Positions 14,880-50,560 of a DNA stretch of 64,000 nucleotides are shown here, piece by piece (position 1 is the stretch's first letter; every line of letters begins with the position of its first letter). The notes under the pieces were generated by a model that was not told where the DNA came from, ran no database searches, and was given only the letters and a program-made list of their open reading frames with translations. The translations under genes and the position numbers were made by a program. Location of the stretch: positions 139,626-203,625 of the forward strand of contig JBFMHN010000005.1 of NCBI GenBank assembly GCA_040752895.1. The letters run 5' to 3'. This DNA is from Pseudomonadota bacterium. GTDB taxonomy: Bacteria > Pseudomonadota > Alphaproteobacteria > GCA-2746255.

Positions 14880-15050
14880 CGCCACCGCCAGCGGCGGAAT
14901 CTGAGTTACCAGTTACCACCGAGCCGGCCGCCCGTCGCACGAATTAAGCCCGTGTTCGCGCGGGCTTGGCGCGCCTCCCGAATGGGAGCCGCGCCCCGGT
15001 AACCGTCCCCGGCAGTTACCACCCTCCGGTTACCACCCTGTCCTTCCGGA
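14880..15050. promoter_or_regulatory. cluster of five GTTACC(ACC) / GGTAACC repeats upstream of the methyltransferase genes
   Basis: gagttaccagttaccaccgag ... ccggtaaccgtcc ... cagttaccaccctccggttaccaccctg, all within ~150 bp before the first ParB-MTase start. Confidence 0.45.
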
Positions 15051-15061
15051 TTCCGAGGTCC

Positions 15062-16471
15062 ATGTCGCCACGGCTGCCCGACAGCGTCGAGCATTGGCCG
15101 CTCGACCGGCTGCGCGCCTACGCACGCAACCCGCGCACGCACTCGGACGAGCAGGTGGCGCAGATCGCAGCGAGCATCGTCGAGTTCGGCTGGACCAGCC
15201 CGGTGCTGGTCGCGGGCGACGGCACGGTGATCGCCGGGCACGGCCGCCTCGAGGCAGCCCGCCGTCTCGGGCTCGATGCCGTGCCGGTCGTGGTGCTCGA
15301 CCACCTGAGCGAGGCGCAGCGCCGGGCCTACGTGATCGCGGACAACAAGCTGGCGCTCAACGCCGGCTGGAACGAGGAGCTGCTCGCCGCCGAGCTGCAT
15401 GCATTGAACGGCGAAGGCTTCGACTTGGCGCTCACCGGCTTCGACGAGGCCGAGCTCGACCGGCTGATGGCGCCGCTCGACGACACGGAGGCGATGTCGC
15501 CGGGTGGCGACACTGGCGAGAACGGCGACGCCGCGGACGAAGCGCCCGAGCCTCCGCGCAATCCGGTCACCCGGCCGGGCGATCGCTGGCAGCTCGGCGA
15601 TCACTGGCTGCTCTGCGGCGACAGCACCGATGCTGCCGTTGTCGCACGCGTGATGAATGGCGAGCGCGCGTCGCTGCTGTTTACCAGTCCGCCCTACGGC
15701 AACCAGCGGAATTACACGACTGGCGGGATCGGCGACTGGGATGCGCTGATGCGCGGCGTCTTCTGCCACCTCGATGAGGCGATGGCGGAAGACGGCCAGG
15801 TGCTCGTCAATCTCGGCCTCGTCCATCGCGACAACGAGTGGCAACCTTATTGGGAAGCCTGGCTCGCCTGGATGCGAGCCCAGGGCTGGCGGCGCTTCGG
15901 CCTTTACGTCTGGGACCAGGGGCCTGGACTTCCCGGAGACTGGAACGGCCGGCTCGCGCCCTCATTCGAGCTGCTATTCCACCTCAACCGCCTAGCGCGC
16001 AAGCCGAACAAGATCGTGCCCTGCAAGTGGGCCGGGCACATCAACGACAGCCACGGCGGCATGCGGGGCAAGGACGGCACCGTGGGCGAGTGGACTCATG
16101 CCGGCCAGGGCGTCCAGGAGACGCGCATCCCCGACAACGTCCTGCGCATCACGCGGCACAAGGCGCGCGGCATCGAGACCGAGCACCCGGCGGTGTTTCC
16201 GGTGGCGCTGCCCGAGTTTGTCATGAGCACCTATTCGGCAGCGGGTGACGTGGTGTTCGAGCCCTTCGCGGGATCCGGCACCACGTTGATCGCTGGCGAG
16301 CGCACCGGACGGAATGTGAGAGCGATCGAACTCGCGCCCGAGTATGTGGACGTCGCGCTCCTACGCTGGCGCCAGCTGTTTCCCGGAACCGAAGCCGTTC
16401 TCGACGGGGACGGCCGGACCTTCGAAGCGATCGCCACCGAGCGTGGCATCGACCTTCACGATGCGGTCTGA
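15062..16471 (+). CDS. ParB-like nuclease domain fused to N6/N4 DNA methyltransferase (paralog 1)
   Basis: N-terminal ParB-N motifs (VLVAGDGTVIAGHGRLEAARRLG). MTase motif IV SPPY (LLFTSPPYGNQ) precedes motif I FEPFAGSGTT. Confidence 0.75.
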   Translation: MSPRLPDSVEHWPLDRLRAYARNPRTHSDEQVAQIAASIVEFGWTSPVLVAGDGTVIAGHGRLEAARRLGLDAVPVVVLDHLSEAQRRAYVIADNKLALNAGWNEELLAAELHALNGEGFDLALTGFDEAELDRLMAPLDDTEAMSPGGDTGENGDAADEAPEPPRNPVTRPGDRWQLGDHWLLCGDSTDAAVVARVMNGERASLLFTSPPYGNQRNYTTGGIGDWDALMRGVFCHLDEAMAEDGQVLVNLGLVHRDNEWQPYWEAWLAWMRAQGWRRFGLYVWDQGPGLPGDWNGRLAPSFELLFHLNRLARKPNKIVPCKWAGHINDSHGGMRGKDGTVGEWTHAGQGVQETRIPDNVLRITRHKARGIETEHPAVFPVALPEFVMSTYSAAGDVVFEPFAGSGTTLIAGERTGRNVRAIELAPEYVDVALLRWRQLFPGTEAVLDGDGRTFEAIATERGIDLHDAV

Positions 16472-17714
16472 TCATCTGCAGGTCGAGCAGTGGCCGATCG
16501 AGCGGCTCCTGCCCTATGCGGCGAACGCCCGGACCCATCCGGAGGACCAGGTCGCCCAGATCGCCGGATCGATCGCGGAGTTCGGCTTCAACGTCCCGTG
16601 CCTCGTGGACGAGCGCGGCGTGCTGGTGGCCGGCCACGGCCGCTTGCTGGCGGCCCGGCGCCTCGGTCTGGCGGAGGTGCCGGTCATCCGGCTCGGCCAT
16701 CTGACCGACGCCCAGGCGCGCGCCTTCCGGATCGCGGACAACCAGATCGCGCTCAACGCCGGCTGGGACGACTCCCTGCTCGCGGCCGAGCTCGCGCGCC
16801 TGAAGGAGGACGGGGTTGACCTCGATGTCCTCGGCTTCGGCGAGGACGAGCTCGACCGCCTGTTCGATGACCTGAACGGGACCAATGGCGCGACGGAGGG
16901 CGAGGACGCCGTCCCGGAGCCGCCTGTGGAACCCGTCACACGCCCGGGCGACCTCTGGCTGCTTGGCGCGCATCGCCTGCTCTGCGGCGACGCCACCAGC
17001 GCCAGCGACGTCGAGAGGCTGCTCGCCGGAGCGGTCCCGCATCTGATGGTGACGGACCCGCCCTACGGGGTCGAGTACGATCCCTCCTGGCGCAACGAGG
17101 CCGGCGTGTCGGCGACCGCGCGCACCGGCCGCGTCTCGAACGACGACCGTGCCGACTGGCGCCAGGCCTGGGCGCTGTTCCCGGGCGACGTCGCCTATGT
17201 CTGGCACGCGGGCGTCCATGCGCGCACCGTCGCCGAGAGTCTGGAGGCGAGCGCGCTGATGATCCGCTCGCAGATCATCTGGGCGAAACCGCGCTTCGTG
17301 CTCGGGCGCGGCGACTACCATTGGCAGCACGAGCCGTGCTTCTACGCGGTCCGCAAGGGCGCGAACGGACACTGGCAGGGTGCGCGCGACCAGTCGACGC
17401 TGTGGACAATCGGCAGCGGCGGCGATGAGGACGAAGCGACGACACACGGCACGCAGAAGCCGGTCGAGTGCATGCGCCGGCCGATCGTCAACAACAGCAG
17501 GCGCGGCGATCTCGTCTACGAGCCCTTCGCCGGCAGCGGCTCGACCATCGTCGCAGCCCAGAGCACGGGGCGCGCCTGTCTCGCGCTGGAGGTCGACCCA
17601 CGCTACTGCGACGTGATCGTCGAGCGGTGGCAGGCGTTCACGGGGTCGCCCGCGATCCTCGATGGCGGTGAGCGGACCTTTGCGGACGTGAAGGACGAGC
17701 GGGCAGCGGCATGA
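16461..17714 (+). CDS. ParB-like nuclease domain fused to N6/N4 DNA methyltransferase (paralog 2)
   Basis: Same architecture: ParB-N (LVAGHGRLLAARRLG), DPPY (MVTDPPYGVEYD), then YEPFAGSGST. Start overlaps the end of paralog 1. Confidence 0.75.
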   Translation: MRSDHLQVEQWPIERLLPYAANARTHPEDQVAQIAGSIAEFGFNVPCLVDERGVLVAGHGRLLAARRLGLAEVPVIRLGHLTDAQARAFRIADNQIALNAGWDDSLLAAELARLKEDGVDLDVLGFGEDELDRLFDDLNGTNGATEGEDAVPEPPVEPVTRPGDLWLLGAHRLLCGDATSASDVERLLAGAVPHLMVTDPPYGVEYDPSWRNEAGVSATARTGRVSNDDRADWRQAWALFPGDVAYVWHAGVHARTVAESLEASALMIRSQIIWAKPRFVLGRGDYHWQHEPCFYAVRKGANGHWQGARDQSTLWTIGSGGDEDEATTHGTQKPVECMRRPIVNNSRRGDLVYEPFAGSGSTIVAAQSTGRACLALEVDPRYCDVIVERWQAFTGSPAILDGGERTFADVKDERAAA

Positions 17715-28220: not shown

Positions 28221-29492
28221 ATGCCCAAGGTGCGCGCCTACGGCGCGGACGCCACGCTCAAGACTTGCCGCGAGGCGGCTTACGGCGTGGCGCCGCTGTC
28301 CGGCTACCGGAGCCTCGACTTCAAGTCGACCGATCTCTCCTCGGCCCAGCCGCTCGGCGATGATCCGCTGCTCGGGCGCGGGCGCAATGCCCAGGACCCT
28401 TATCGCGGCCTCATCACCGATGAGGGCCAGATCGAGATCCCGCTCGACCTCCGCGGCACCGGCTTCTGGCTCACCGGGCTCTTCGGCGACCCGGTGACGA
28501 CGACGGTCAAGGCCAGCGGCTCGATCGGCTTCGCCGCTAATCCATCCGCCGGTGACACGATCACCTTGAACGGCACCGTCTGGACCTTCGTCTCCGGCAT
28601 CCCCTCGGGCAACGAGACCCAGATCCAGGCGACCGCGACCCAGACCGTCGACCAGCTGGTGGCCGACCTCAACGCCTCGGCCGATGCGGAGGTGTCGAAG
28701 TGCACCTATTCGCGGCCGACGGGCACCCAGACGCTGGCGATTGAGTTCGACATCGCGGGACCCACAGGCAACGGCTTCACCATCGCCGCCTCGGCGGCGA
28801 GCGTCTCGGGGCCCACTCTCACCGGTGGCGGCCATGCCCACGTCTGGGAGAGCGGCGCCGACGACATCCCGAGCTACACGGTCGAGATCGGCCACCCGAA
28901 GCTCACGACGCCGGTCTTCTTCCGCCACCTCGGCACGGTGATGGAGAGCCTCGCCTTCGAGATGGGCCAGGAGGGCCCTGCCAATGCGCGGCTCCAGCTT
29001 GTGGCCCAGGGCGAGGAGCGATATGCCGCCACCGTCGATGCGGCGCCGGACAGCTACGCCCTCCGGCGCTTCAGCCAGGGGCGCGGCTTCATCCGCCGCG
29101 GCGGGTCGGCGCTCGCCGGCGTCACCGGCGGCAGCCTCACCTTCTCCAACAACCTGGAGCGGGTGCGGGTGATCCGCGAGGACGGCAAGATCGAGGCGGC
29201 CGATCCGACCTTCGCCTCGGCGCAGGGCGCGATGTCGGTGCGCTTCGACGGCGCGACGCTCGTCGCCGAGGCCACCGACGGCGATCCGGTCGCCCTCGAA
29301 TACGGCTTCACCTTCCCCGAAGGCTACGCGCTCCGCTTCGAGCTGCCGCGCGTCTTCCTGCCCAAGCCCAAGTACGCCGTCTCCGGCCCCGGAGGGGTCG
29401 AGGCGAGCTTCGACTGGCGCGCCGCCTTCGACGACACGGAAGGCACCATGCTGCGCGCCCATCTCCTCAACGACGTCACCAGCTACGTTTGA
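28221..29492 (+). CDS. major tail (tube) protein
   Basis: 423 aa. Its position before the chaperone-frameshift-tape-measure trio and a strong terminator downstream. Confidence 0.55.
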   Translation: MPKVRAYGADATLKTCREAAYGVAPLSGYRSLDFKSTDLSSAQPLGDDPLLGRGRNAQDPYRGLITDEGQIEIPLDLRGTGFWLTGLFGDPVTTTVKASGSIGFAANPSAGDTITLNGTVWTFVSGIPSGNETQIQATATQTVDQLVADLNASADAEVSKCTYSRPTGTQTLAIEFDIAGPTGNGFTIAASAASVSGPTLTGGGHAHVWESGADDIPSYTVEIGHPKLTTPVFFRHLGTVMESLAFEMGQEGPANARLQLVAQGEERYAATVDAAPDSYALRRFSQGRGFIRRGGSALAGVTGGSLTFSNNLERVRVIREDGKIEAADPTFASAQGAMSVRFDGATLVAEATDGDPVALEYGFTFPEGYALRFELPRVFLPKPKYAVSGPGGVEASFDWRAAFDDTEGTMLRAHLLNDVTSYV

Positions 29493-29587: not shown

Positions 29588-29944
29588 ATGATCCGTCTCG
29601 ATTTGAAACGCGAGCCCTATTGGCTCGACCTTGGCCATGGCGCGCGCGTCCATGTCCGGCCTTGCACCACGGCTCTCGTCATGGCCGCGCGGGCGGCGGT
29701 GGCGCGCAGCATTGATCCGACTACGGACGAAAACGCCGTCGGCGAGCGGACCGCGGCGCTCGTCAAGGCGCTCGCGAAGTCAGCGATCGACGGCTGGGAA
29801 GGCGTAGGCGATGAAAAGGGTGAGCCGGCCAAGCTCACGCCCGAAGGCGTCGATGCGCTGATGGACCTCTGGCCGATCGCCGAGTCCTTCGAGCGTCAGT
29901 ATCTCGGTCCGGCGCTGCTGCTGGACGCCGAAAAAAACGCCTGA
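29588..29944 (+). CDS. tail assembly chaperone (gpG-like)
   Basis: 118 aa ORF immediately upstream of the tape measure region. Ends 4 nt after the slippery heptamer. Confidence 0.6.
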   Translation: MIRLDLKREPYWLDLGHGARVHVRPCTTALVMAARAAVARSIDPTTDENAVGERTAALVKALAKSAIDGWEGVGDEKGEPAKLTPEGVDALMDLWPIAESFERQYLGPALLLDAEKNA

Positions 29945-30309
29945 CGGCCCGCGCCAAGTGGCACTTCGGCGGCGGGCCGGCCTATTGCGACGGGTGCCGG
30001 CGTGACGGTCGTCCCTGTGCGCGGGGCGAGCCCGGCATCGACGGCGCCCTCTGCCCCTACATCGCCAACGAGCCGCTGACCGATGCCGGTTGGCAGGCCT
30101 GGGACGTGCTCACGCGCTCAGGTGGCCAGCTACGGATCGTGCCCGGCGCCGTGATCGGCATCGATCTCGTGGCCGCGCTGCGGCTCGGCGAGGCCCTCGG
30201 CCATGACCTCCAGGCGCTGGCCGAGCTCCTGCCCGCCGGCGAGGCCGGCCTCGTGAAGGCGATGAACAATCGGCTCACCGACAATTACGAAGACTCGCGA
30301 AATCCGTGA
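29588..30309 (+). CDS. tail assembly chaperone -1 frameshift fusion product (gpGT-like) with Cys-rich extension
   Basis: Frame-1 ORF (listed 30106-30309, actually open from the slip site) is contiguous with the chaperone ORF after a -1 shift at AAAAAAC. The extension contains a CxxC...C...C cluster. Confidence 0.5.
29932..29938 (+). other. -1 programmed ribosomal frameshift slippery heptamer A_AAA_AAC
   Basis: Zero-frame codons GAA AAA AAC GCC TGA. The -1 frame continues open for ~120 codons (KKRLTARAKWHFGGGPAYCDGC...) to 30309. Confidence 0.6.
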
Positions 30310-30344
30310 CCCCCTCATAAACTCAATCAAAATGGGAGGGGGAG

Positions 30345-30668
30345 ATGGCGAAAAGACCCAATCGCGTTACCGAGGCCGAGGTTGCCTTTGCGACGCTGCA
30401 GATCGCGGCAAGCCGGCCCAATGGCACAGCAACGTATCAGCGACTGAAAAAGGAACTGCCCGATTACCTCAAGCTATCGGCGGAGGATCAGGTGCAGTCG
30501 CTGACCCGTCCGAATGAAGAACTGTGGGAGCAACTGATCCGGAACATCAAATCGCACTCCGATACGCCGGGGAACATAATCTGCGAGGGATATGCGACGC
30601 ATGTTCCCCGCGTTGGCTACAGGATCACGGATAGCGGCAGGCGCTACTTGAAAAGCAAAGGCTACTGA
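30345..30668 (+). CDS. standalone Mrr_N-like winged-helix protein (moron)
   Basis: 107 aa. LKKELPDYLKLSAEDQVQSL...WEQLIRNIKSH...GYATHVPRVGYRITDSGRRYLK resembles the N-terminal wHTH of Mrr-type restriction proteins. Local GC is clearly lower than in the flanks. Confidence 0.4.
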   Translation: MAKRPNRVTEAEVAFATLQIAASRPNGTATYQRLKKELPDYLKLSAEDQVQSLTRPNEELWEQLIRNIKSHSDTPGNIICEGYATHVPRVGYRITDSGRRYLKSKGY

Positions 30669-31258
30669 GAATAACGCGCCTTGTAGCCGGGCTTGAACCA
30701 TCGGAGTTCGGTTCCGCTCGGCGCGTCCTTGTCCCAGACAAACCACGCATAGGCCGTAGTGCCGGTCCCCTTCACCTCGACGCCGGTCGGATAGAAGGTG
30801 ATCCGTTCGCTGAAGACCCAGACGCGCGAGGGTGGACATCTTTCGAAGATTGTCCTGGCGCGGTTTGCACCCTCCAGGAACGCGAGGCGTAGTAAGAGCG
30901 CGAACTTCCTCTTGGCGAGATTCACGCCATTCGCCACGAATGCTTCCGCACTGTTGTATGGCGGGTTCGTGATGATGTTGTCAGCGCTCCGCGACGCCGT
31001 CAGGAAGTCAACTCCGATATCGCCAAACCCGCGATCGTAAAGATCGGAGCTGCGTACCGGGCGAGTAGTCTCTGCGAGAACCCGGGACATTGCGCCGTCA
31101 CCGCAGGCGCATTCCCAAATGTCACCCTTGAACTTCTCATTGTCGATGAGTGCGTAAGTCGCCCATGGAGGCGTCGGAAAGAAGTCCGGCCCGCTCAGGT
31201 CGGCGAAGCGCTTGATCGTTGGCTTGAAGCCGCCGTTGAGATTGTATGTTGCGTCCAT
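30662..31258 (-). CDS. small N6-adenine DNA methyltransferase (NPPY motif), moron
   Basis: Motif IITNPPYN with an upstream FxGxG-like ECACGDGAM. True start is MDATYNL (ATG ~31258). The longer six-frame ORF (to 32536) is an antisense extension into the tape-measure gene. Convergent with the wHTH gene, 7 nt overlap. Confidence 0.65.
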   Translation of the reverse strand: MDATYNLNGGFKPTIKRFADLSGPDFFPTPPWATYALIDNEKFKGDIWECACGDGAMSRVLAETTRPVRSSDLYDRGFGDIGVDFLTASRSADNIITNPPYNSAEAFVANGVNLAKRKFALLLRLAFLEGANRARTIFERCPPSRVWVFSERITFYPTGVEVKGTGTTAYAWFVWDKDAPSGTELRWFKPGYKARYSQ

Positions 31259-31486
31259 CCAAAAAAAACCTAACAGAATCAGATGGTTAGTAAAGCGAAA
31301 ATTTTGCGAGTCTTTTGAATCACTTAGCGCCTCAGCGCGTTCCGAGAGCCTACGAACTGCCGAATCGATCAGCACCGAACGTCCTATCGCCTCGTCCCCT
31401 GATGACCACCGAGAGCCCGAGCTAGAGGCCCAGAACCTCCAGGGCACCGACACTCTGCCTGCCTTCAACCCCACTCGGGACAGATC

Positions 31487-33931
31487 ATGACCACCCGCAA
31501 TCTCGCCGTGCGCCTTGCCGTCATCGACGGCGGCAAGGTGAAGGCAGAGCTGCGCGACGTCGGCGAGAGCGGCCAGCGCTCGCTCAAGCGCATCGAAGAC
31601 TCTGCGCGGCCCGCCTCGCGCGCGCTGCAGGCGATCGACGGCGCTGCCGGGCAGGTCCGCGGCTCGCTCGAAGGGCTGACCAGCCGCCTCGGCCCTCTGG
31701 GCGGGGCGCTCTCGCGGCTCGGCCCGGCCGGCCTTGCCGCCGGCGCGGCGATCGCGGGCCTCGGGCTCATCCTCACGCGCGGCGTGCAGGAGGCGGCCGA
31801 GGCCGACCGCTCCTACCGCCGCCTCGAGGCGGTGCTGCGCGCGACGGGCTACGCCTCGGGCCTGACGGCGCGCGAGATCGCCGGCTTCGCCGAGGAGATG
31901 GAGCGCTCGACGCTCGCCTCGGCCGAGTCCGTCCAAGACGCGGCTTCGGTGCTCGCGACCTTCCGCTCGGTCTCCGGCGAGACCTTCACGCGGGCGATCC
32001 GGCTGGCGCAGGACCTGTCCACGGTCTTCGGGCAGGACCTGCGCTCCAGCGCCACGCAGCTCGGCAAGGCGCTCGAAGAGCCCATACAGGGCATCTCGGC
32101 GCTCCGCCGGGTCGGCGTCTCCTTCACCGCCTCGCAGCGCGAGCTCATCGAATCGCTGGTCGAGACCGGCCAGACGGCGGAAGCGCAGAAGGTCATCCTC
32201 GATGCGCTCGAACAGCAGGTCGGCGGCGCCAGTGCCGCCGAGGCCGGCGGCCTCACCGGCGCCGCCAACCGCCTGTCCGACGCCTGGGGCAATCTCCTCG
32301 AGGCCATCGGCCGCACGCCTGCCGTTTCCGGGCTTGCAGAGGGCGCGCTCAACCTGCTCGCCGATGCCGCCGAGGGCGTGGCGAGCCTCTTCGAGGACGA
32401 CCCGATCTCGGTCCGCATCGTCGAGACCAACCGGCGGCTCATCGAGGCCGAGGACCGGCTCGTGAGGTTCAGGGAGAGCGGCAACCGCCGTGCCGTCGCC
32501 GTGACCCAGCGCCTGGTCGAGGACCTGAGGCGCCAAGTCGACGAGCTCATCGCTGAGGCGCGCAGGGAGGCCGAGGCCTTCGCTGAGGAGCAGCAGCGCG
32601 CGGAAGCGGGCCGCCGCGCCGCGGAAGCGGAGCGCCTAGCCGAGCTCCTCAGCACGCAGCGCCGCGAGATCGGCCGCGCGATCGACCAGATTGCGACGGA
32701 CCCCGCCGAGCGCATCGCGCGGATCAACCGGGAGCTCGATGAGACGCGCCGGCGGCTGGACGCGCTCCGCGCTCCGGACGGCAGCAACGCCGCCGACGTG
32801 GACGCGGCCATCGGCCGGGCCGAGGAGCTGGCGCGGCGGCGGATCGAGGCGATCGAGCGGCCGGCGCGGGAGGCCGCGGGCCGCGTCGCCGCCGCCAATG
32901 CCCGGGTGATCGAGGATCTCGGCCGGCAGCTCGCCGGTCTTGCCGACGAGCGCCAGGCCTTCATCGACCAGGCGCTCTCGCGCCTCTCGGAGGGCGCCAC
33001 GGCGGCGCAGCGCGCCGAGGTCGAGCGGCTCGCGGGCGCTCTCTACGACGAGAAGCAGGCCCGTGAAGAGCTCGCCAAGGCGATGCAGGAGGAGGAGCGG
33101 CTGCGCGAGGAGGGGCGGCGCCTCGTCGAGCAGCTGCGCACGCCGACCGAGGAGTATGGCGTGGCCGTCGAGCGCCTGAGCACGCTGCTCAGCGCCGGCG
33201 CGATCGATCAGGAGACGTTCAACCGCGCGCTCGTCAAGGCGAACGAGGACTTGGCGGCAGCGCAGGACCGGCTGCTCCGCCAGAGCCGGGAGTGGCAGGA
33301 CGGCGTCACCCGGGCGCTCAGGGACTATGCCGACGCGGCGACCGACTCCGCCAAGGCCGCAGAGCAGGCGACCGCGCTCGCCTTCAAAACCATGGAGGAC
33401 GCGCTCGTCTCCTTTGTGACCACGGGCAAGTTCGAGTTCGCCTCCTTCGCCGACAGCATCCTGGCGGACATCACCCGCATCGCGGTCCGCCAGGCGATCC
33501 TGGCACCGCTTGCCAACCTGCTCTCCGGCGGCAGTGAGGGCGGCGACCTCCTGGGCGGCCTCGGGCAGGTCTTCGCCGGGATCTTCCACGGCGGCGGGGT
33601 CGCCGGGCGCGACGCCACGCCTGCACGCGGCGTCGATGCCGCGGTGTTCCTAACGGCGCCCCGCTACCATACGGGCGGCTTCGCGGGCCTCGCGCCGGAC
33701 GAGATGCCGGCGATCCTGCGCCGCGGCGAGGCCGTGCTCACGCCGGAGCAGATGGCGGCGCTCGGCGCCGGCGCTCGCGGCCAAGCCGAGCGGCGGCCGG
33801 TCCCTGCGCAGGCGGGGATCACCGTGGTGATGAACATCTCGACGCCCGACGTGGGCGGCTTCCGCTACGCCCAGGGGCAGATCGCGGCCGACGCCGCGCG
33901 CGCCATCGACCGGGCGCGGCGCAACCTCTGA
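31487..33931 (+). CDS. tail tape measure protein
   Basis: 814 aa, long Ala/Arg/Glu-rich coiled-coil. Position after the G/GT chaperone. Confidence 0.75.
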   Translation: MTTRNLAVRLAVIDGGKVKAELRDVGESGQRSLKRIEDSARPASRALQAIDGAAGQVRGSLEGLTSRLGPLGGALSRLGPAGLAAGAAIAGLGLILTRGVQEAAEADRSYRRLEAVLRATGYASGLTAREIAGFAEEMERSTLASAESVQDAASVLATFRSVSGETFTRAIRLAQDLSTVFGQDLRSSATQLGKALEEPIQGISALRRVGVSFTASQRELIESLVETGQTAEAQKVILDALEQQVGGASAAEAGGLTGAANRLSDAWGNLLEAIGRTPAVSGLAEGALNLLADAAEGVASLFEDDPISVRIVETNRRLIEAEDRLVRFRESGNRRAVAVTQRLVEDLRRQVDELIAEARREAEAFAEEQQRAEAGRRAAEAERLAELLSTQRREIGRAIDQIATDPAERIARINRELDETRRRLDALRAPDGSNAADVDAAIGRAEELARRRIEAIERPAREAAGRVAAANARVIEDLGRQLAGLADERQAFIDQALSRLSEGATAAQRAEVERLAGALYDEKQAREELAKAMQEEERLREEGRRLVEQLRTPTEEYGVAVERLSTLLSAGAIDQETFNRALVKANEDLAAAQDRLLRQSREWQDGVTRALRDYADAATDSAKAAEQATALAFKTMEDALVSFVTTGKFEFASFADSILADITRIAVRQAILAPLANLLSGGSEGGDLLGGLGQVFAGIFHGGGVAGRDATPARGVDAAVFLTAPRYHTGGFAGLAPDEMPAILRRGEAVLTPEQMAALGAGARGQAERRPVPAQAGITVVMNISTPDVGGFRYAQGQIAADAARAIDRARRNL

Positions 33932-43428: not shown

Positions 43429-44649
43429 GTGGCGAACGAAACGAGGCTGATACGGTCGCAAGGGCTGTTCATCGAGGCCGAGGCGCCACTAGGTCTTGAC
43501 GAGTACCAGCAATTCACCACAAAAACCGACAAAAACGAGCGGCAAGGCATCGCCGGCTTAGGATTTGTTCTCCTCGGGTTGTTTGGGGAGGCGGGCAGCC
43601 TGCTAAGCGAACTCAAAAAGAAACAGCGAGATAAAGATTCCTACATCGCATACCACGACTCGGTTATCGAGGAGTTTGGCGATGTGCTTTGGTACTTCGC
43701 CAATGCAGCGCTTCGAGCCAACTTACCCCTCGCCGCGATCGCCAAGCTCTTACCGGCTAGTCTCGCCGACTGGGACTATCACGGCCGCGAGGGTGCATCC
43801 ACCTTCGTCGATCTCCAAACCGCAAAGGCAGAATTTAAGGGACCCCTCTCGACGGACATCGTCGAGCGTCGACTCTTGGCCCTAGCCGGGAATGTCGGTC
43901 AGCTCCTGGAGAATTTCAGCAACCGCAGATTTGATACTAATCGTGACGCGCTCTCGGCTGACCTCGTTGAAATCTTTCGCGCCCTAGTGGCTGCTGCCGA
44001 TGATGCCGACGTGAGTCTCGATGAGGCAGCACGCCGCAACATCGCAAAGACCTTGAGTCGATGGCCGATCGACCGCAAGTGGGATCCACCGTATGACGAT
44101 GATTTCGATGAGGACGAACGCCTGCCGCGCCGGATCGTGATGGTGTTCAAGGAGAAAGATGTTGGAGGGAAAAAATACGTCATCCAGCAGTGCAACGGCA
44201 TCAACATCGGGGATCGTCTGACGGACAACCGACTTGAACAAGATGATTATCGTTTTCATGACGTATTTCATCTCGCGTATGCAGCGATCCTTGGGTGGTC
44301 ACCGGTCATCCGGGCGCTGTTCAAGGTCAAGCGGAAGAGTCGTCCCGAGATCGATGAGAATCAAGACGGTGCGCGCGCCATCCTCATCGAGGAAGGCGTT
44401 TCCACCTGGATTTTTAACCATGCTCTTCGAAATCAACATTTCCGCAGCATCGATTCCCTCGACTATTCCCTTCTAAAGGCTGTTCGCGAACTCGTGAAAG
44501 GATATGAAGTGGAAAGCCGTCCGCATTGGCAGTGGGAGCTCGCCATCCTTGAAGGGTTCCGCGTATTCAGAGAAGTGTGCGCGCATCGGGGCGGCACCGT
44601 GATCGCCGACCTGAATGAGCACACCATTACGTTCAAAGGACCAAAATGA
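43429..44649 (+). CDS. MazG-like nucleoside triphosphate pyrophosphohydrolase domain fused to an uncharacterized ~250 aa C-terminal domain
   Basis: MazG motifs GLGFVLLGLFGEAGSLLSELKK and EEFGDVLWYFANAA. Local GC ~50% versus ~68% in the flanks. Confidence 0.6.
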   Translation: MANETRLIRSQGLFIEAEAPLGLDEYQQFTTKTDKNERQGIAGLGFVLLGLFGEAGSLLSELKKKQRDKDSYIAYHDSVIEEFGDVLWYFANAALRANLPLAAIAKLLPASLADWDYHGREGASTFVDLQTAKAEFKGPLSTDIVERRLLALAGNVGQLLENFSNRRFDTNRDALSADLVEIFRALVAAADDADVSLDEAARRNIAKTLSRWPIDRKWDPPYDDDFDEDERLPRRIVMVFKEKDVGGKKYVIQQCNGINIGDRLTDNRLEQDDYRFHDVFHLAYAAILGWSPVIRALFKVKRKSRPEIDENQDGARAILIEEGVSTWIFNHALRNQHFRSIDSLDYSLLKAVRELVKGYEVESRPHWQWELAILEGFRVFREVCAHRGGTVIADLNEHTITFKGPK

Positions 44650-45338
44650 GCCGCACCAATAAGAGTGAAGCACGGCAATTCGTCGAACGGCTAGCAGCGC
44701 TTCGTTTCGACACCGTTTTCAATCCCTATGCCCAAGCGTGCCCAGAATGGGACAGCGGCAACGCTGCGGCAACTCGTCGACGTAACCTTGAGCTCGTCCT
44801 TGAAGCCGCGATGGAAAAAGGGGTCGAGTCAATCTGGGTCGCGCGGGACCTAGGATATCGAGGTGGCCGTCGAACCGGTCTCGCCCTAACCGACGAAGTG
44901 CATCTTTCCTATCATGCGGCGCTGTTTGGTACGCCACCGCTCGCCCGCGCGACCAAGGGGCCCGCGGTAGCCGAACGAACCGCTGCCGTTGTATGGCAGA
45001 TGCTTCGCGCGATCGATCGTCCAATCTTTCTCTGGAATGTCTTCCCGCTTCACCCCCATCAGCCAGAAGACCCGATGTCGAATCGCTGCCACACGCGAGC
45101 GGAGCGGGCCGCTTGTCGACCCTTATTGGTCTGGCTTCTGGACGCGCTGCAGCCTCGCAACATAGTTGCTATTGGCCGGGATGCGCACGCTGCGCTTGAC
45201 GATCTGGGCGTAAGGGCAACGTCAGTGCGCCACCCGAGCTACGGCGGACAGCCGGAGTTCGTCAGCGGTCTAGCAGCTCTGTACGGTTTGTCCTCTATGG
45301 CGTCGAGCAATACTTCCCAGTTGCGTATGTTCCGGTAG
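44646..45338 (+). CDS. uncharacterized protein, possibly uracil-DNA glycosylase superfamily-like
   Basis: Start overlaps the stop of the MazG-like gene (ATGA). Gly-rich ARDLGYRGGRRTGLALTDE and C-terminal RHPSYGG loosely resemble the two UDG-superfamily motifs. Weak. Confidence 0.3.
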   Translation: MSRTNKSEARQFVERLAALRFDTVFNPYAQACPEWDSGNAAATRRRNLELVLEAAMEKGVESIWVARDLGYRGGRRTGLALTDEVHLSYHAALFGTPPLARATKGPAVAERTAAVVWQMLRAIDRPIFLWNVFPLHPHQPEDPMSNRCHTRAERAACRPLLVWLLDALQPRNIVAIGRDAHAALDDLGVRATSVRHPSYGGQPEFVSGLAALYGLSSMASSNTSQLRMFR

Positions 45339-45357
45339 CTTCATGACTCTGACCGAG

Positions 45358-45968
45358 TCACGCTGATCGCACCCAGTCAAGAGGAGCGCCAACGTATCCG
45401 TGCTGGCCAACGGACCGGATCCACTCGATAAATTCCGAAACGAGCGCATCGGGAAAATGGTTCTTATGTCCTCGGCCAGCGCATAGATCAAAGCCTCCGC
45501 AGTTACGGAAGCGCTTTAGGATTTTCGGACCTGTTCCGCCCCAATAGACATAATCAGTGCTCACGAGAACCCGATCAGTTTGTGTGTCATTCTCGATGTT
45601 TTTCTGATTCGCGCTTCCATCGGCATGGCTGTGATGGGAGTTCTCTTGATTCCAGCGACCCGACTTTGGATCACGGTGATAGATGTTATCGCCGAACGCC
45701 TGTTTCTTGCTTCCCGACAGCCTTGGCCTTTTGGGGAAGAAACGAGGGTCATGCCAATACTCGTCGAATGTCAGGGTCTCCGTGACGCGCATCGCGAACA
45801 CAATGTGGGCGTCACGGCCGCGCGACTTTGATCCAGTGCCTACCACCCAGTCGCCGACTTGGGCCATCCGCCTTATTATTGGCTTGCAGGTGGCGAGCGT
45901 GCAGAACCCATAGAAAGGGTTCGGCGCAAAGCCGTAGTCACGAGCGACGACGTAGGTGTACAGCGTCA
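45358..45968 (-). CDS. uncharacterized Cys/His-rich protein downstream of the TIR-like gene
   Basis: Conserved-looking N-terminus VTLYTYVVARDYGFAPNPFYGFCTLATCKP. C-terminal HHSHADGS and CGGFDLCAGRGHKNH. Proposed GTG start 10 nt after the TIR stop. The longer ATG-initiated ORF (to 46170) would overlap the TIR gene in another frame. Confidence 0.4.
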
Positions 45969-45979
45969 CCTGTCCATGC

Positions 45980-46456
45980 TCATCGGCAGCTATAGCGCTT
46001 GATGGGTCGATCCGACCGCAACTCACCAGAAGGAGTCCTCCAGTCGTTGATCTGTCCTGTGACCGCATCAATGATGCGATCGCTGTTCCATCCAACCACC
46101 GCATCGGCATATTTATCGAGTGCGTCTGGTACATCACACTCGGCGGCACCATGCGCCCAAACGCCGACAATGCGCTTTTCCGCTTTGTGGGCGTACTCGA
46201 TTTCCCAATCGACCCAGGGACTGTTACGAGTCTGCGGGGAGATATAGACGATCATGGTCCCAGCCCAGCGAATGCGCGGGGCTAGGATTTCGGACTTGAT
46301 GTAGTCGGGATTGGACGCGTCATTCGGCTTCTCAGCGTTGATGGACCCGTCCCGTATACTGAAGCCCTTATTCCCGAGAAGCTCCTTCAGCTTCCCCAGC
46401 CCTTCGTCGTCCTCATGAACGTGGCTGATGAAGACGTTTCGGGTTTCCTCGGTCAT
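45980..46456 (-). CDS. TIR-like domain protein (DUF1863 / Thoeris ThsB-like)
   Basis: N-terminal VFISHVHEDDEGLGKLKELL and later SPWVDWEIEYA match the bacterial TIR_2 pattern. Confidence 0.6.
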   Translation of the reverse strand: MTEETRNVFISHVHEDDEGLGKLKELLGNKGFSIRDGSINAEKPNDASNPDYIKSEILAPRIRWAGTMIVYISPQTRNSPWVDWEIEYAHKAEKRIVGVWAHGAAECDVPDALDKYADAVVGWNSDRIIDAVTGQINDWRTPSGELRSDRPIKRYSCR

Positions 46457-46560
46457 CGAGAATCTCCTCTATCGTTTCGTCCCATCCGTAGGGTGCCCAA
46501 CTCGGGGCAAGTCATCCTACCGTCTGCGACGTGTTGACCAGTCATTGATTTCTCGCTCAC

Positions 46561-47220
46561 TTAATCCGTCATGACCAAACGGCGCATGTGGTTGCGGTAG
46601 CTGATCAGGCGCTGGTTGACCCTTTCCATATCGGCCTTCAGTTCGTCGTATTTCGGAAACTTTTGTTGAATCTCCTGTGGATCGATCACCAGATCGCCGC
46701 TGGTCTTGTTCAGCTCGTTCTCATACCAACGGCGGAATCGCGCTTGCCACATCGTCAGGTGAGGCCGTAGCCCCTCGTTCAGAACCTCGATCGATAGCTT
46801 GATAATCTTCTGGGTGCTGCTGTGCCGCACCTTGTTGACGGGGACCGATTTTACGAGGTCCCGAGTGACGGCGAAGAATTCGTACCAACTGTTATAGATT
46901 TCAGCGATGACGTCATGGTCGAAATCGATCGGCAATCCAATTTTCCGTGTGCTCAGCTCCACCCATATTGCATAAGCTACCTGGCGATCCGTCATGTTTG
47001 GTTTGAGTCGAAGCTTGCCGGTGCCCGTTCCTATCTCGGCTTGGTCGATCTCGAAATCCTTCCAGCTGGAGCCACCAGAAAACCAACGCCAGCCAGCATA
47101 GACGAGAACCGCCACCAAGAGCGCGATACCAACCCAGAAGCTGACTTGGATCGATACCGACCAGTCCGAAAGGAGCCGTACGGACAAGAGGTCGATATTC
47201 GATTGGCTTGTGGTGTCCAT
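46561..47220 (-). CDS. membrane-anchored uncharacterized protein (single N-terminal TM plus ~170 aa cytoplasmic domain)
   Basis: TM VSFWVGIALLVAVLVYAGWRWF. Begins 5 nt after the upstream TIR gene's stop. Low GC. Confidence 0.45.
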   Translation of the reverse strand: MDTTSQSNIDLLSVRLLSDWSVSIQVSFWVGIALLVAVLVYAGWRWFSGGSSWKDFEIDQAEIGTGTGKLRLKPNMTDRQVAYAIWVELSTRKIGLPIDFDHDVIAEIYNSWYEFFAVTRDLVKSVPVNKVRHSSTQKIIKLSIEVLNEGLRPHLTMWQARFRRWYENELNKTSGDLVIDPQEIQQKFPKYDELKADMERVNQRLISYRNHMRRLVMTD

Positions 47221-47797: not shown

Positions 47798-50560
47798 CTA
47801 TTCCACCTTTACCGCATCGGCGAGGCCGAGTTCCTGCAGGACCTGCCGAATCTCGTTCGCAAGGCCGGTCGCGGAATCGGCAGAGACAGTGACCGAGAAC
47901 TCGAGTCCGATCCTGAGTTCCGAGCCGGAGCGGAGCTTTGGCAGAATCTTCGTACCAAGGCGGTTCCAGACCTCCGGGGGGACGGCGCCCACAACGCGGA
48001 GTGTCCGTGTTGAAGTTGCGGGCTCGGGGGCGGGGCCAAGCGTGGGACCAGGTTCCGAAACGGGCGGGACCGTGGGGCCCGGCTCGGGCTCCGGACTTGG
48101 GGTGGGCATCGCTGGCTTCCCGGCCCTGAGCGCTTCCGCCGTGCTCTTCCTCAACAGGAACACTCCGGCGTCGAAAGCGACCTCGTCAGACGCAACCGCC
48201 TCCTGGAACCAGATCCGCTCGTACGTGCCGTCGGCCTTCTTGCCCGATGCCAAGCCGAAATCGCCGCGTGTCACGAACTCGACGATCTTGGACTTCAAAG
48301 TGGCGTCGGGATCGACGAGCCGAGTCAGCGAGCCATTGAGAAAGCTCTGTCGAAGGCTCGCAAGGGGCCAGGCGCCCGAGTCCTTCAGCGCCGGTGGCCA
48401 GTTGCGCTCGATGTATCCAGCGCCGACCGACTCGTTCAGGAGCGCTTCGGACTTGAGGGCGGCGATGACGCGCCCGCAAAGCGTCTCGCCGCTTGACGAA
48501 TGTCCCGCACCGAGGTCGATCACCTTGAGCCCATCCGCTTCCTGGCCGTCGGCAAGGATGGCGAAGCGGTAGCCGCCCCAGACCTCGTCCTTGGCGGCCT
48601 CTTCCGCGTCTTTGACCTTCGACTGGAGTTCCGCCCGGTCATTGCGGTCGAACTCCCCGCCCAGCGTGCCATCGGCCACCTCGCGCGCGACCCGCCTCCA
48701 TGCGAGCGCGAGCTCCACCTTCTCGCGCAGATCCCGCCCTGGCTTCTTGAGGCACCACACGAGCGCACCCGGATAGAGTCGGGGCGACTTGCCGCGGCTT
48801 CGAGTCCACTCGGCGATCTGGGTGCGGAGCGAGCCGGTGCCGGACCATTCCGTTTCGGGATCGGCTGCGACGAGCGTCAATCTGGGCGTGTCAGGAATCT
48901 CCGCGCCGTCGCGCGGGAAGGGGACGACAGGGATGCTGGCGCCACGCCGGAACTCGTCCTCGACGAGCTTCCGCATGGCGGGTTTGACCTCTGTCTCATG
49001 GTCAAGGGACGCCCGACGGTCGCTCACAACCTTCTTCATCGTCGGCTGATAGCCGATCCGGAATCCGTCCGTCCCCACCTTGCGCAGGAAGTAGGAGCGG
49101 TCTTCAAGCGCGAAGGCGGCATTATCGATGGTCGTCGTATCCAGCTCCGGCTCGCCGAGCGCGAAGCGGAGCTCCGGGAGATGCGCGACCTTGTCGGTCT
49201 GCCCGCCCGACGATTCGAACAAGATCGCGGTGCCAACCCGCTTGTGAATGTCGCGGAGCGGTCCCTTGGTATCGGCGTCGAGCGCCCTCGCATGAGCCTG
49301 CTCGCCGGCGATATCTGTGTCGATCGCAGCGACGAGGCGGGACTCGCCGAGCTGGCCCAGCACGACGCTGCGGAAGCCCGGCTCGGCCAGCGGTGCCGAC
49401 CCGAGCGTGATCAACGGCTCGGTGCGCGCCTTGCGGAACGCGTCCTGGGCCGCCAGCGATATCCACTGGGCCAGCATCGCGAGCGTGCCGCGCGTCTGCT
49501 GGTACTGCGGCAGCGGCTGCCATTTCCGTTGGAAGACTGACAGCGTCGCCGGATGGAACGGGTAACACGTCTCGAAGCGGCGCTGGAGGAACTCGCGCGC
49601 CTTGGCCTCGGTCGCCGCGGAATCCACCGCTGTCCACTCGGGCGGGAGCTGGGCGCGCCGCTCGAAGCACCAGTCGCCAAAGGCCCGCGCGACGCTCTTG
49701 CGGATCCTTTCGCTGCCAAGGTCCTGGAACAGCCGCCGGCGCACGACCTCGCTGATCTCGGTCTCGTCGTTGGCGATCAGGTCCTTGGCGACGCGGCGCA
49801 CCACCTTCGAAATCTTGTCCTGCCACTCCTGATCCCACTCGGTCATCTCCACCTGGCTGCGGGGAAGGGAAATCACGCATGCGCCGTGCGTAGTCCCCGT
49901 CGTGGCGACGGTCAGGTTCTGAATGAACGCATGGAATGAATCAGCGCTGCCCCGGTGGCGATTGAGGAAGTTTAGGACCTCGTCGAATAGCAGAAGCACA
50001 GGTGCCCCGGCGGCCTGGAAGACCCGCGCGATCGCGTCGGTGCCCGGCGGCGTGGTTTTCGCCGAAGGACCCAGCGCCTCGACGCCCTTGTCTCCGGCGA
50101 GCTGGCGAGCGATGTCGATCCACGGCGTCTCACGCCCCTCGCGCGGATCCCATGCGTTGCCGACAAAGACCGCGACCTTCCCTTTGGGCACGGTTGCGAC
50201 GCCCGCCTCCCGCACAAGATCGGCCACGCCCGAATAGCCCGCTGCCGCCTCGCCATTGCTTACGAGGTGGTAGAGCGTCGTGAGCGTATGCGTCTTGCCG
50301 CCACCGAACTGGGTGATCAGCGTGAGCACCGGCGCGGTATTCTCGGTCTTTCCTGAGAGCCGCCGAAGCACCATTCCTGCATGCTCGCGCAACGCCCTGG
50401 TGAAGCAGGTGCGGGCGAAGAACTGGTCGGGCTTCCGGTAATCCTCCGGCGCCGTCCCGGCCACGACCTGCTCAAGCGCGATGGCGAACTCGTCGGGGTT
50501 AAACGACCGGCCTTCGCGGACTTCCTTGCGCGGCGTCGCGACCTTGTACCAAGGTTCCAT
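47798..50560 (-). CDS. DUF499 family ATPase (COG1483-like), defense-associated
   Basis: 920 aa. P-loop ITQFGGGKTHTL and Walker B LLLFDEVLNF. The protein-level assignment to the DUF499 family rests mainly on the P-loop context and the adjacent DUF1156 partner. Confidence 0.6.
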   Translation of the reverse strand: MEPWYKVATPRKEVREGRSFNPDEFAIALEQVVAGTAPEDYRKPDQFFARTCFTRALREHAGMVLRRLSGKTENTAPVLTLITQFGGGKTHTLTTLYHLVSNGEAAAGYSGVADLVREAGVATVPKGKVAVFVGNAWDPREGRETPWIDIARQLAGDKGVEALGPSAKTTPPGTDAIARVFQAAGAPVLLLFDEVLNFLNRHRGSADSFHAFIQNLTVATTGTTHGACVISLPRSQVEMTEWDQEWQDKISKVVRRVAKDLIANDETEISEVVRRRLFQDLGSERIRKSVARAFGDWCFERRAQLPPEWTAVDSAATEAKAREFLQRRFETCYPFHPATLSVFQRKWQPLPQYQQTRGTLAMLAQWISLAAQDAFRKARTEPLITLGSAPLAEPGFRSVVLGQLGESRLVAAIDTDIAGEQAHARALDADTKGPLRDIHKRVGTAILFESSGGQTDKVAHLPELRFALGEPELDTTTIDNAAFALEDRSYFLRKVGTDGFRIGYQPTMKKVVSDRRASLDHETEVKPAMRKLVEDEFRRGASIPVVPFPRDGAEIPDTPRLTLVAADPETEWSGTGSLRTQIAEWTRSRGKSPRLYPGALVWCLKKPGRDLREKVELALAWRRVAREVADGTLGGEFDRNDRAELQSKVKDAEEAAKDEVWGGYRFAILADGQEADGLKVIDLGAGHSSSGETLCGRVIAALKSEALLNESVGAGYIERNWPPALKDSGAWPLASLRQSFLNGSLTRLVDPDATLKSKIVEFVTRGDFGLASGKKADGTYERIWFQEAVASDEVAFDAGVFLLRKSTAEALRAGKPAMPTPSPEPEPGPTVPPVSEPGPTLGPAPEPATSTRTLRVVGAVPPEVWNRLGTKILPKLRSGSELRIGLEFSVTVSADSATGLANEIRQVLQELGLADAVKVE

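Follow-up and report, generated by a model that had tools for sequence, protein, structure and literature searches.

The 64,000-nucleotide stretch considered here, referred to as the window, comes from contig JBFMHN010000005.1 of an alphaproteobacterium (positions 139,626 to 203,625) and carries a prophage whose tail module is interrupted by a foreign, inserted block that harbors two small convergent genes, called A and B. Gene B encodes a minimal DNA methyltransferase and gene A a standalone winged-helix protein. Judged from the loci compared, A and B together are a conserved, widespread and horizontally mobile two-gene unit. The insert is best read as a self-contained mobile epigenetic cassette in which B would methylate GANTC and A would act as its operator-binding controller, an interpretation to which a probability of roughly 0.5 is given; the specificity of B, the binding site of A, its methyl sensitivity and the sign of the regulation are the parts of this model that we infer. 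The kind of methylase that B represents is known; the winged-helix partner, the GANTC promoter/operator and the mobility of the unit are apparently undescribed. Searches of the literature, with PF14338 included, returned no description of the A-B pair, of a leaderless promoter/operator built from GANTC, of the mobility of such a cassette, or of a link between this domain and methylases. The principal features, with positions in the window, are these.

30278..31486, no strand: low-GC inserted block, consisting of the cassette and 155 nt of non-conserved right end, defined by its GC (guanine plus cytosine) content, with borders from the comparison with phage contig L066
30290..30303, plus strand: GANTC-containing 14-mer AAGACTCGCGAAAT, left arm of an inverted repeat (I12), 42-55 nt upstream of the ATG of A
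30345..30668, plus strand: gene A, 107-amino-acid standalone Mrr_N-type winged-helix protein, with a strong Shine-Dalgarno (SD) sequence GGGAGGGGGAG
30662..30668, no strand: 7-nt overlap of the convergent A and B stop codons, read from the sequence
30662..31258, minus strand: gene B, 198-amino-acid minimal N6-adenine DNA methyltransferase, predicted to be GANTC-specific from phrog_799, its motifs and homology to PhiLM21_p027
31267..31294, minus strand: predicted promoter P_B, with -35 TTTACT at 31289-31294 and -10 TAGGTT at 31267-31272, based on cross-locus conservation
31307..31328, minus strand: paired-GANTC candidate operator, reading GCTAAGTGATTCAAAAGACTCG on the strand of B and separated from the -35 by about 12 nt
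31332..31486, no strand: right-hand part of the insert, not kept among cassette copies, cassette DNA homology ceasing at about 31331

B is almost certainly a DNA N6-methyladenine (m6A) methylase, as its family and motifs indicate. It matches PHROG 799 (phrog_799, "DNA methyltransferase") with an E value of 2.7e-60, and it has 7827 homologues, most of which, among the matches listed, are 196-204 amino acids in length. Motif I (WECACGDG, residues 48-55) precedes the NPPY motif (residues 98-101), in which N98, P99 and P100 are invariant in both of the B alignments, and position 101 varies, the close relatives having Y and the remoter ones F. Around 100 residues follow NPPY, with no obvious recognition domain among them. 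Motif I before NPPY is not the order found in the beta class, where motif IV comes before motif I, and no PF01555 match was obtained for B or its relatives; similarly, no relative of B was found in Pfam, NCBIfam or the PDB. The AlphaFold2 (AF2) model of B, made from a shallow alignment, has a predicted local distance difference test score (pLDDT) of 38. A longer start, giving 237 amino acids, was rejected because the homologues begin at the same MDATYNLNGG. The target of B is probably GANTC, to judge from its homology to PhiLM21_p027, with which it shares 40% identity at 85% coverage in a tblastn comparison (E 2e-20) and is alignable end to end. PhiLM21_p027 has been shown experimentally to methylate GANTC, which is the CcrM site, and 179-amino-acid Paracoccus prophage enzymes, together with longer relatives (up to 599 amino acids, around 33% identity), likewise methylate GANTC (PMC5537653). 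The conserved GANTC sites in the promoter of B itself point, indirectly, to the same target.

A is predicted, almost certainly correctly, to bind DNA. Its AF2 model, based on a 41-sequence alignment, is a winged helix (pLDDT 91.7, predicted template modeling score (pTM) 0.82) with elements in the order H-E-H-H-E-E-H, including an extra N-terminal helix and a C-terminal helix. The protein matches the Pfam family Mrr_N (PF14338) across positions 7-86 of 87 with an E value of 8.6e-4 and a score of 19.8 bits, the cut-off being 29.5, and a match to the same family is found in 18 of the 41 aligned relatives at an E value of 0.01 or better, the best being 4.5e-9. The top Foldseek matches of the model in the PDB are the winged helices of forkhead, MarR and histone H1 proteins (probability at most 0.99, E above 0.07); searches of both the PDB and BFVD gave only generic winged helices, none at an E value of 0.001 or better, and single-sequence and profile searches of A against the sequences of solved structures gave only chance-level matches. 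An hhalign comparison of the A profile with an unverified Escherichia coli Mrr sequence gave an E value of 0.09 in the right region, and is not relied on. Seventeen residues are invariant across the 41 aligned members, mostly in the recognition helix and in the loop that follows it, within the motif TRPNEELWEQxIRNIKSH...GN. In the recognition helix, W61, Q63 and R66-N-I-K-S-H71 are invariant while the rest of the protein drifts, a pattern that would fit a single conserved DNA target.

No Mrr_cat domain of the PD-(D/E)XK type is found in A, whose 107 amino acids extend only as far as the wing and the final helix; Pfam reports no further domain either. A role for A as a tiny nuclease, considered in connection with its H71...N77...H86 pattern and beta-beta-alpha end, was rejected because the last helix lacks a conserved metal ligand and a PD-(D/E)XK core is absent. 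A PADLOC search returned only chance-level matches.

The association between A and B is seen from both directions. Searching with A retrieved 131 small proteins and 58 genome loci, almost all of the latter in Alphaproteobacteria (Bradyrhizobium, Mesorhizobium, Sphingomonas, Sphingobium, Roseovarius, Nisaea, Thioclava and others), and in nearly all A loci with sufficient room, from genomes and metagenomes, a convergent B abuts or overlaps it. Searching IMG/VR with B, A is present at 16 of the 17 loci that have room and a B of at least 68% identity; it was not found beside more distant IMG/VR homologues of B (50-66% identity), apart from one (L086) where a very divergent A-like reading frame of 102 amino acids adjoins a distant B homologue. 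Altogether, 67 pairs are known besides that of the window. Relative to the window copy, their B proteins are 68-94% identical (median 75%) and their A proteins 28-90% (median 47%), with A the less conserved partner in every one of the 67.

The earlier note on this DNA had described a 107-amino-acid protein resembling Mrr_N but lacking the nuclease, lying opposite an NPPY adenine methyltransferase of about 198 amino acids with 3' ends overlapping by 7 nt, and this description holds: the Mrr_N similarity is present, with a sub-threshold match of the protein itself reinforced by its relatives and the modeled fold. Of the two findings that the note said would count against it, a lack of similarity to Mrr_N on profile search and a cassette of host-like GC conserved in this tail module in all relatives, neither was made. 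The same note regarded a free-standing Mrr_N domain paired with a methyltransferase as unusual; with 67 further loci, the pairing proves to be a widespread mobile unit and not an oddity of this one prophage.

The settings in which the cassette is found are diverse, and include dnaX/ybaB/recR with an antitoxin, a ParE toxin-antitoxin pair, phage head genes, the tail operon of the window, and an insertion sequence (IS) element. In L066, an IMG/VR contig from a related phage, a cassette (A 81% and B 82% identical) lies immediately behind the portal gene and faces the other way with respect to the late genes, and in two other loci (L004 and L032) the cassette adjoins the gene for the large terminase subunit (TerL). 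Comparison of the cassette DNA with cultured phages found no similarity. Two further copies deserve mention in their own right. A Logan contig (L094, SRR35812448) encodes an identical A protein and has 98.9% identity to the window from 30120 onward (matching 30120-31020), while upstream of the point matching 30120 an IS transposase (DDE_Tnp_1) replaces the chaperone gene. In L052 (7959-8483) the cassette is degraded, the A-like frame running past the wing into unrelated sequence with no B after it.

The A domain is also found in other company. A profile search of 1.84 billion representative proteins yielded 403 A-family clusters at 50% identity, mostly of standalone proteins of about 100-110 amino acids. 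In two members, P0262 and P0270, the A domain forms the C-terminus of a beta-class (PF01555) DNA methylase, P0270 scoring 27.2 bits against Mrr_N; another, P0344, is an NgoFVII-like phospholipase D (PLD) nuclease with the domain at its C-terminus. In a gammaproteobacterial metagenome-assembled genome (OZ220714.1; L018, 8001-9193), a 105-amino-acid A homologue is convergent, with a 4-nt overlap, with a D12 Dam-class methylase of 292 amino acids (PF02086, E 2e-38) that is unrelated to B. Finally, in the Zymomonas plasmid pZM36 (L007, 2948-4276), the domain ends a 442-amino-acid protein annotated as "DinD". Going by these matches, the companions of the A domain include three methylase folds unrelated to one another, and a nuclease.

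The DNA upstream of B appears to be organized around GANTC. P_B has a 16-nt spacer that holds the conserved TGATTCTG (GANTC at 31276-31280) and a TG that extends the -10, and only 8 nt separate the -10 from the ATG of B, with no SD. Across 32 distinct loci the region upstream of B conforms to the consensus TTGacTAA-n5-TGATTCTGnTAnnnT-6 nt-ATG, whose invariant promoter octamer includes the GANTC site; the distance from this consensus to the ATG is fixed in 23 of the 32, and an SD is seen in one of 33. P_B is predicted on these grounds to be an extended -10 sigma-70 promoter that starts transcription at the A of the ATG and so gives a leaderless mRNA, although a generic promoter scanner did not call it. 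Taken over 71 distinct loci, the 150 nt upstream of B contain 199 GANTC sites, where shuffles contain 39.8 +/- 6.1, an excess of about 5-fold that, like the other locus counts for GANTC, measures conservation and not independent events, the loci being related. The density is 18.7 per kb upstream of B and 1.55 per kb in its coding sequence. At least one GANTC lies upstream of B in 62 of 68 loci, and a pair in 34 of 68, nearly always at -59 to -66 from the ATG.

GANTC is scarce in the 64-kb window as a whole (142 sites against 340 +/- 18 in dinucleotide-preserving shuffles), a depletion that would fit a host with CcrM-type methylation, and yet four sites fall within 31276-31366. The only GANTC-N4-GANTC in the 64 kb is the candidate operator, and its half-site has no other copy in the window; such confinement to the cassette would be consistent with local autoregulation. 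One lineage carries this upstream element as GAGTC-n4-GAnTCACTTAG and another, which includes the window (31307-31328), as its exact reverse complement, and in a third lineage it is the perfect palindrome GTGAGTCA-n3-TGACTCAC. An element that is orientation-free or palindromic would fit the site of a dimeric protein and not a promoter or RNA element. A scan of the region against Rfam yielded no meaningful match. There are exactly two copies of the 14-mer AAGACTCGCRAAAT in the 64 kb, one 42-55 nt upstream of each of the two start codons, together forming an inverted repeat; the right arm of this repeat (31301-31314) overlaps the candidate operator, and several relatives likewise carry a GACTCG motif upstream of A. 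No terminator-like site was detected between A and B.

Both composition and comparison with a related phage mark the block as a foreign insert. GC is 0.53-0.60 across about 30300-31500 and about 0.70 on either side; for the insert as delimited (30278-31486) it is 0.571, against 0.691 in the left flank and 0.739 in the right. At third codon positions (GC3), A has 0.685 and B 0.729, with the tube, tape measure, TerL, portal and capsid genes at 0.90 or above. The genes that flank the insert are as follows.

28221-29492: tail tube (Phage_tube_2), a context gene
29588..30309, plus strand: tail assembly chaperone (29588-29944) and, up to 30309, its frameshift extension; a homologue of the chaperone of L066
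31487..33931, plus strand: tape measure protein (TMP), with Tape_meas_lam_C (1.8e-28) and TMP_2

L066 comes from a phage whose TerL is 71% identical to that of the window and whose head-tail, tube and chaperone proteins are 36-52% identical. Its chaperone-extension open reading frame ends in ...EEMNANHG*, with a stop codon that overlaps the tape-measure ATG and nothing in between. The homologue in the window reaches ...KAMNNRL and then runs for 10 further codons into low-GC DNA, so that the final codons of the extension come from the insert, and the tape-measure gene begins around 1.2 kb beyond it. Because the stop of the L066 extension overlaps the TMP start without an insert, the low-GC block is an insertion; it is foreign and is not a conserved part of the tail module. 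This agrees with the proposal in the earlier note of a foreign, low-GC cassette between chaperone and tape measure in the tail module. The location given there, 30330-31480, also stands, but the comparison with L066 makes the block slightly wider, at about 30278-31486. Among cassette copies, DNA homology spans 30341 to about 31331. The start of TMP, ATGACCACC, is duplicated at 31402-31410 inside the insert, 85 nt upstream of TMP (direct repeat D20). Weak direct repeats with a common offset of 1284-1285 nt (44 nt at 70% identity and 10 nt at 90%) also bracket the insert, 30201-30263 being paired with 31486-31545; these, like the duplicated start of TMP (31402-31410 against 31487-31495), could be traces of recombination from the arrival of the cassette, or chance matches in GC-rich DNA.

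The predicted GANTC target of B and the conserved GANTC promoter/operator point to methylase regulation as the likely job of A. In the mechanism that we favor, B would methylate GANTC and so bring about constitutive CcrM-type methylation of both phage and host DNA. A promoter of its own, of the extended -10 sigma-70 kind, would drive the gene and yield a leaderless mRNA. A would bind the paired-GANTC operator at P_B and thereby set the level of B, and its binding would probably depend on methylation of the operator, either by B or by the host CcrM, to give a feedback loop that senses its own product. Convergent transcription without a terminator may add antisense interference. The methylase under this feedback is one that, in excess, would upset a host dependent on CcrM. 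What makes methyl sensing by A plausible is that the GANTC methylase M.HhaII triggers E. coli Mrr, the prototype for this domain (PMC5435990).

Several observations weigh against this scheme. The Mrr_N score of A is under the Pfam threshold, and no solved structure is significantly similar beyond the generic winged helix. An identity of 40% is no proof that B has the specificity of its characterized relative. Only half of the loci (34 of 68) show the paired site, and in 6 of the 68 the DNA upstream of B is free of GANTC; upstream of A, enrichment for GANTC across the family is weak (39 of 68 loci), and the promoters of the gammaproteobacterial pair of A and a Dam-class methylase have none. A link between A subtype and operator orientation is confounded by common ancestry. 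The operator lies upstream of the -35, in an activator-like position. Lastly, the conserved sites TGATTCT and CGAGTCT fit the GcrA consensus YGAKTCK (PMC4647560), and it could be the host GcrA, rather than A, that reads them.

A reading in which the host GcrA activates P_B through its GANTC sites, in the manner of CcrM/GcrA wiring, is nonetheless rather unlikely, as is the other job that A would then have to perform, such as binding methylated DNA to fend off a type IV nuclease, shutting out other phages or controlling genes of the host. In its favor, TGATTCT in the spacer and CGAGTCT in the operator are placed no more than 40 bp from the predicted start or slightly upstream of it, nearly all copies of the cassette come from Alphaproteobacteria, and the strong depletion of GANTC in the window fits a CcrM host. 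It does not account for the co-inheritance of A and B at 67 further loci, nor for the pairing of A with non-homologous methylases, one of them in a gammaproteobacterium, where GcrA is not expected. Furthermore, the operator has a palindromic or orientation-free, dimer-like form, whereas GcrA is described as acting as a monomer (PMC9976885), and the operator half-site has no second copy in the window. A GANTC-methylated host would also be unlikely to encode a nuclease against that mark. A role for A as an anti-restriction decoy is unlikely, because an alphaproteobacterial host is itself GANTC-methylated by CcrM.

It is unlikely, too, that A is a DNA-targeting or specificity subunit of B, that is, a recognition domain supplied in trans and not a transcription factor. 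The small size of B and the apparent lack of a recognition domain in the stretch after NPPY would suit such a role, as would the fusion of A-like domains to the C-termini of beta-class methylases, the convergent Dam-class pair and the nearly obligatory pairing within the B clade. Yet in E. coli neither PhiLM21_p027 nor the 179-amino-acid Paracoccus enzymes need a partner to be active and to target GANTC specifically (PMC5537653), no A homologue was found in phiLM21, and distant B homologues (50-66% identity) occur without A. Convergent genes with separate promoters are rare for the subunits of one enzyme, and a specificity determinant would not be expected to keep its recognition helix invariant while the whole protein diverges so much faster than B. 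A further suggestion, that the cassette is a decayed restriction-modification (R-M) or type IV remnant with A the functionless DNA-binding leftover of an Mrr-like nuclease, is highly improbable. R-M gene pairs are typically convergent and overlapping, as A and B are, A resembles Mrr_N, and P0344 joins an A-like domain to a PLD nuclease; but the length of A is kept at around 100-110 amino acids with its 17 invariant residues in 41 members and relatives in 403 clusters, and A is retained at nearly every locus, the copy in L052 being the one degraded example seen.

The controller model can be extended, though here we would go only tentatively, to a pair of writer and reader. B would write m6A-GANTC, and A would be a nuclease-free reader of the Mrr type that responds to the methylation state of the operator and feeds back on B, so that the cassette might act as a portable, self-sustaining switch by which phages and islands impose or override the cell-cycle methylation of the CcrM type. 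The A domain could then be a general methyl-DNA reader module, used in cis or in trans, that serves three classes of methylase and a PLD nuclease.

The remainder of the window belongs to a phage with a lambda-like head (TerL gpA, a lambda-family portal and capsid E) and a siphovirus tail that resembles those of gene transfer agents, with DUF2460, BR0599 and Rcc01698-like proteins encoded downstream of the tape measure. The prophage has two more methyltransferase genes upstream of the terminase, at 14966-16471 (ParB_N and N6_N4_Mtase, 501 amino acids) and 16344-17714 (N6_N4_Mtase, 456 amino acids), both of host-like GC3; because these exist, with that composition, B appears as a third and separately acquired methylase. 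A second low-GC stretch (about 43500-47200, GC around 0.545 in 1.2-kb windows) follows right after the tail genes and contains a gene for a MazG_C-domain protein (43429-44649); it may be another cargo region. An ATPase of the SMC/AAA_23/AAA_21 type and a DUF499 protein (502-2481; 47798-50560) lie outside the structural region and may be related to defense.

Left unchecked, methylation of the CcrM type harms the cell cycle of Alphaproteobacteria. Phages are already known to encode GANTC methylases that imitate CcrM, and a dedicated, always co-inherited partner together with a promoter and operator made of probable target sites constitutes a concrete and testable control circuit. If A does read methylation, it would be a small bacterial reader of m6A in DNA that lies outside both the restriction enzymes and GcrA, it might be developed as a tool for the detection of GANTC methylation, and it would explain why Mrr_N-type domains recur beside, or fused to, unrelated methylases. 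The cassette also illustrates neatly how a unit with its own promoter moves from site to site and switches orientation within related phages.

The arrangement proposed here has parallels in several known systems. The controller (C) proteins of R-M systems are of the Xre helix-turn-helix type, bind upstream of their own gene and control the restriction enzyme, and some methylases, such as M.SsoII, regulate themselves. With both of these the cassette would share a small protein or domain that binds DNA and is encoded alongside a methylase, a proposed dyad operator, and the timing or limiting of expression. It differs from C proteins in that A is modeled as a winged helix, the dyad is at the promoter of B and contains presumed methylation sites, and the cassette has no nuclease gene. 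E. coli Mrr, which consists of Mrr_N and Mrr_cat, has an N-terminal winged-helix domain of the family to which A belongs; unlike Mrr, A is without a nuclease domain and is partnered with the writer of the mark instead of opposing it.

B is of the same family as the phage GANTC methylases that include PhiLM21_p027 from phiLM21 of Sinorhizobium and the 179-amino-acid prophage enzymes of Paracoccus aminophilus (Dziewit et al. 2014; PMC5537653), and like them it is small, borne by alphaproteobacterial phages or prophages, has the same motif I and NPPY, and is unrelated in sequence to CcrM. The genes of that group are co-directional, with no A-like neighbor, and all characterized members are located upstream of the replication module (PMC5537653). 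In contrast, B lies between the tail chaperone and the tape measure, with its relatives next to TerL or the portal or in the chromosome, and it has its own predicted leaderless GANTC promoter and its partner A, its specificity being inferred where theirs was determined. With the CcrM/GcrA circuit (PMC4647560), the cassette would share the same predicted mark, a promoter GANTC that fits YGAKTCK, and the proposed logic of a methylase coupled to a methylation-sensitive reader. However, B is not a homologue of CcrM, having no PF01555 domain, A is not GcrA, Mrr_N being its only Pfam match, and the whole module is mobile and consists of just two genes.

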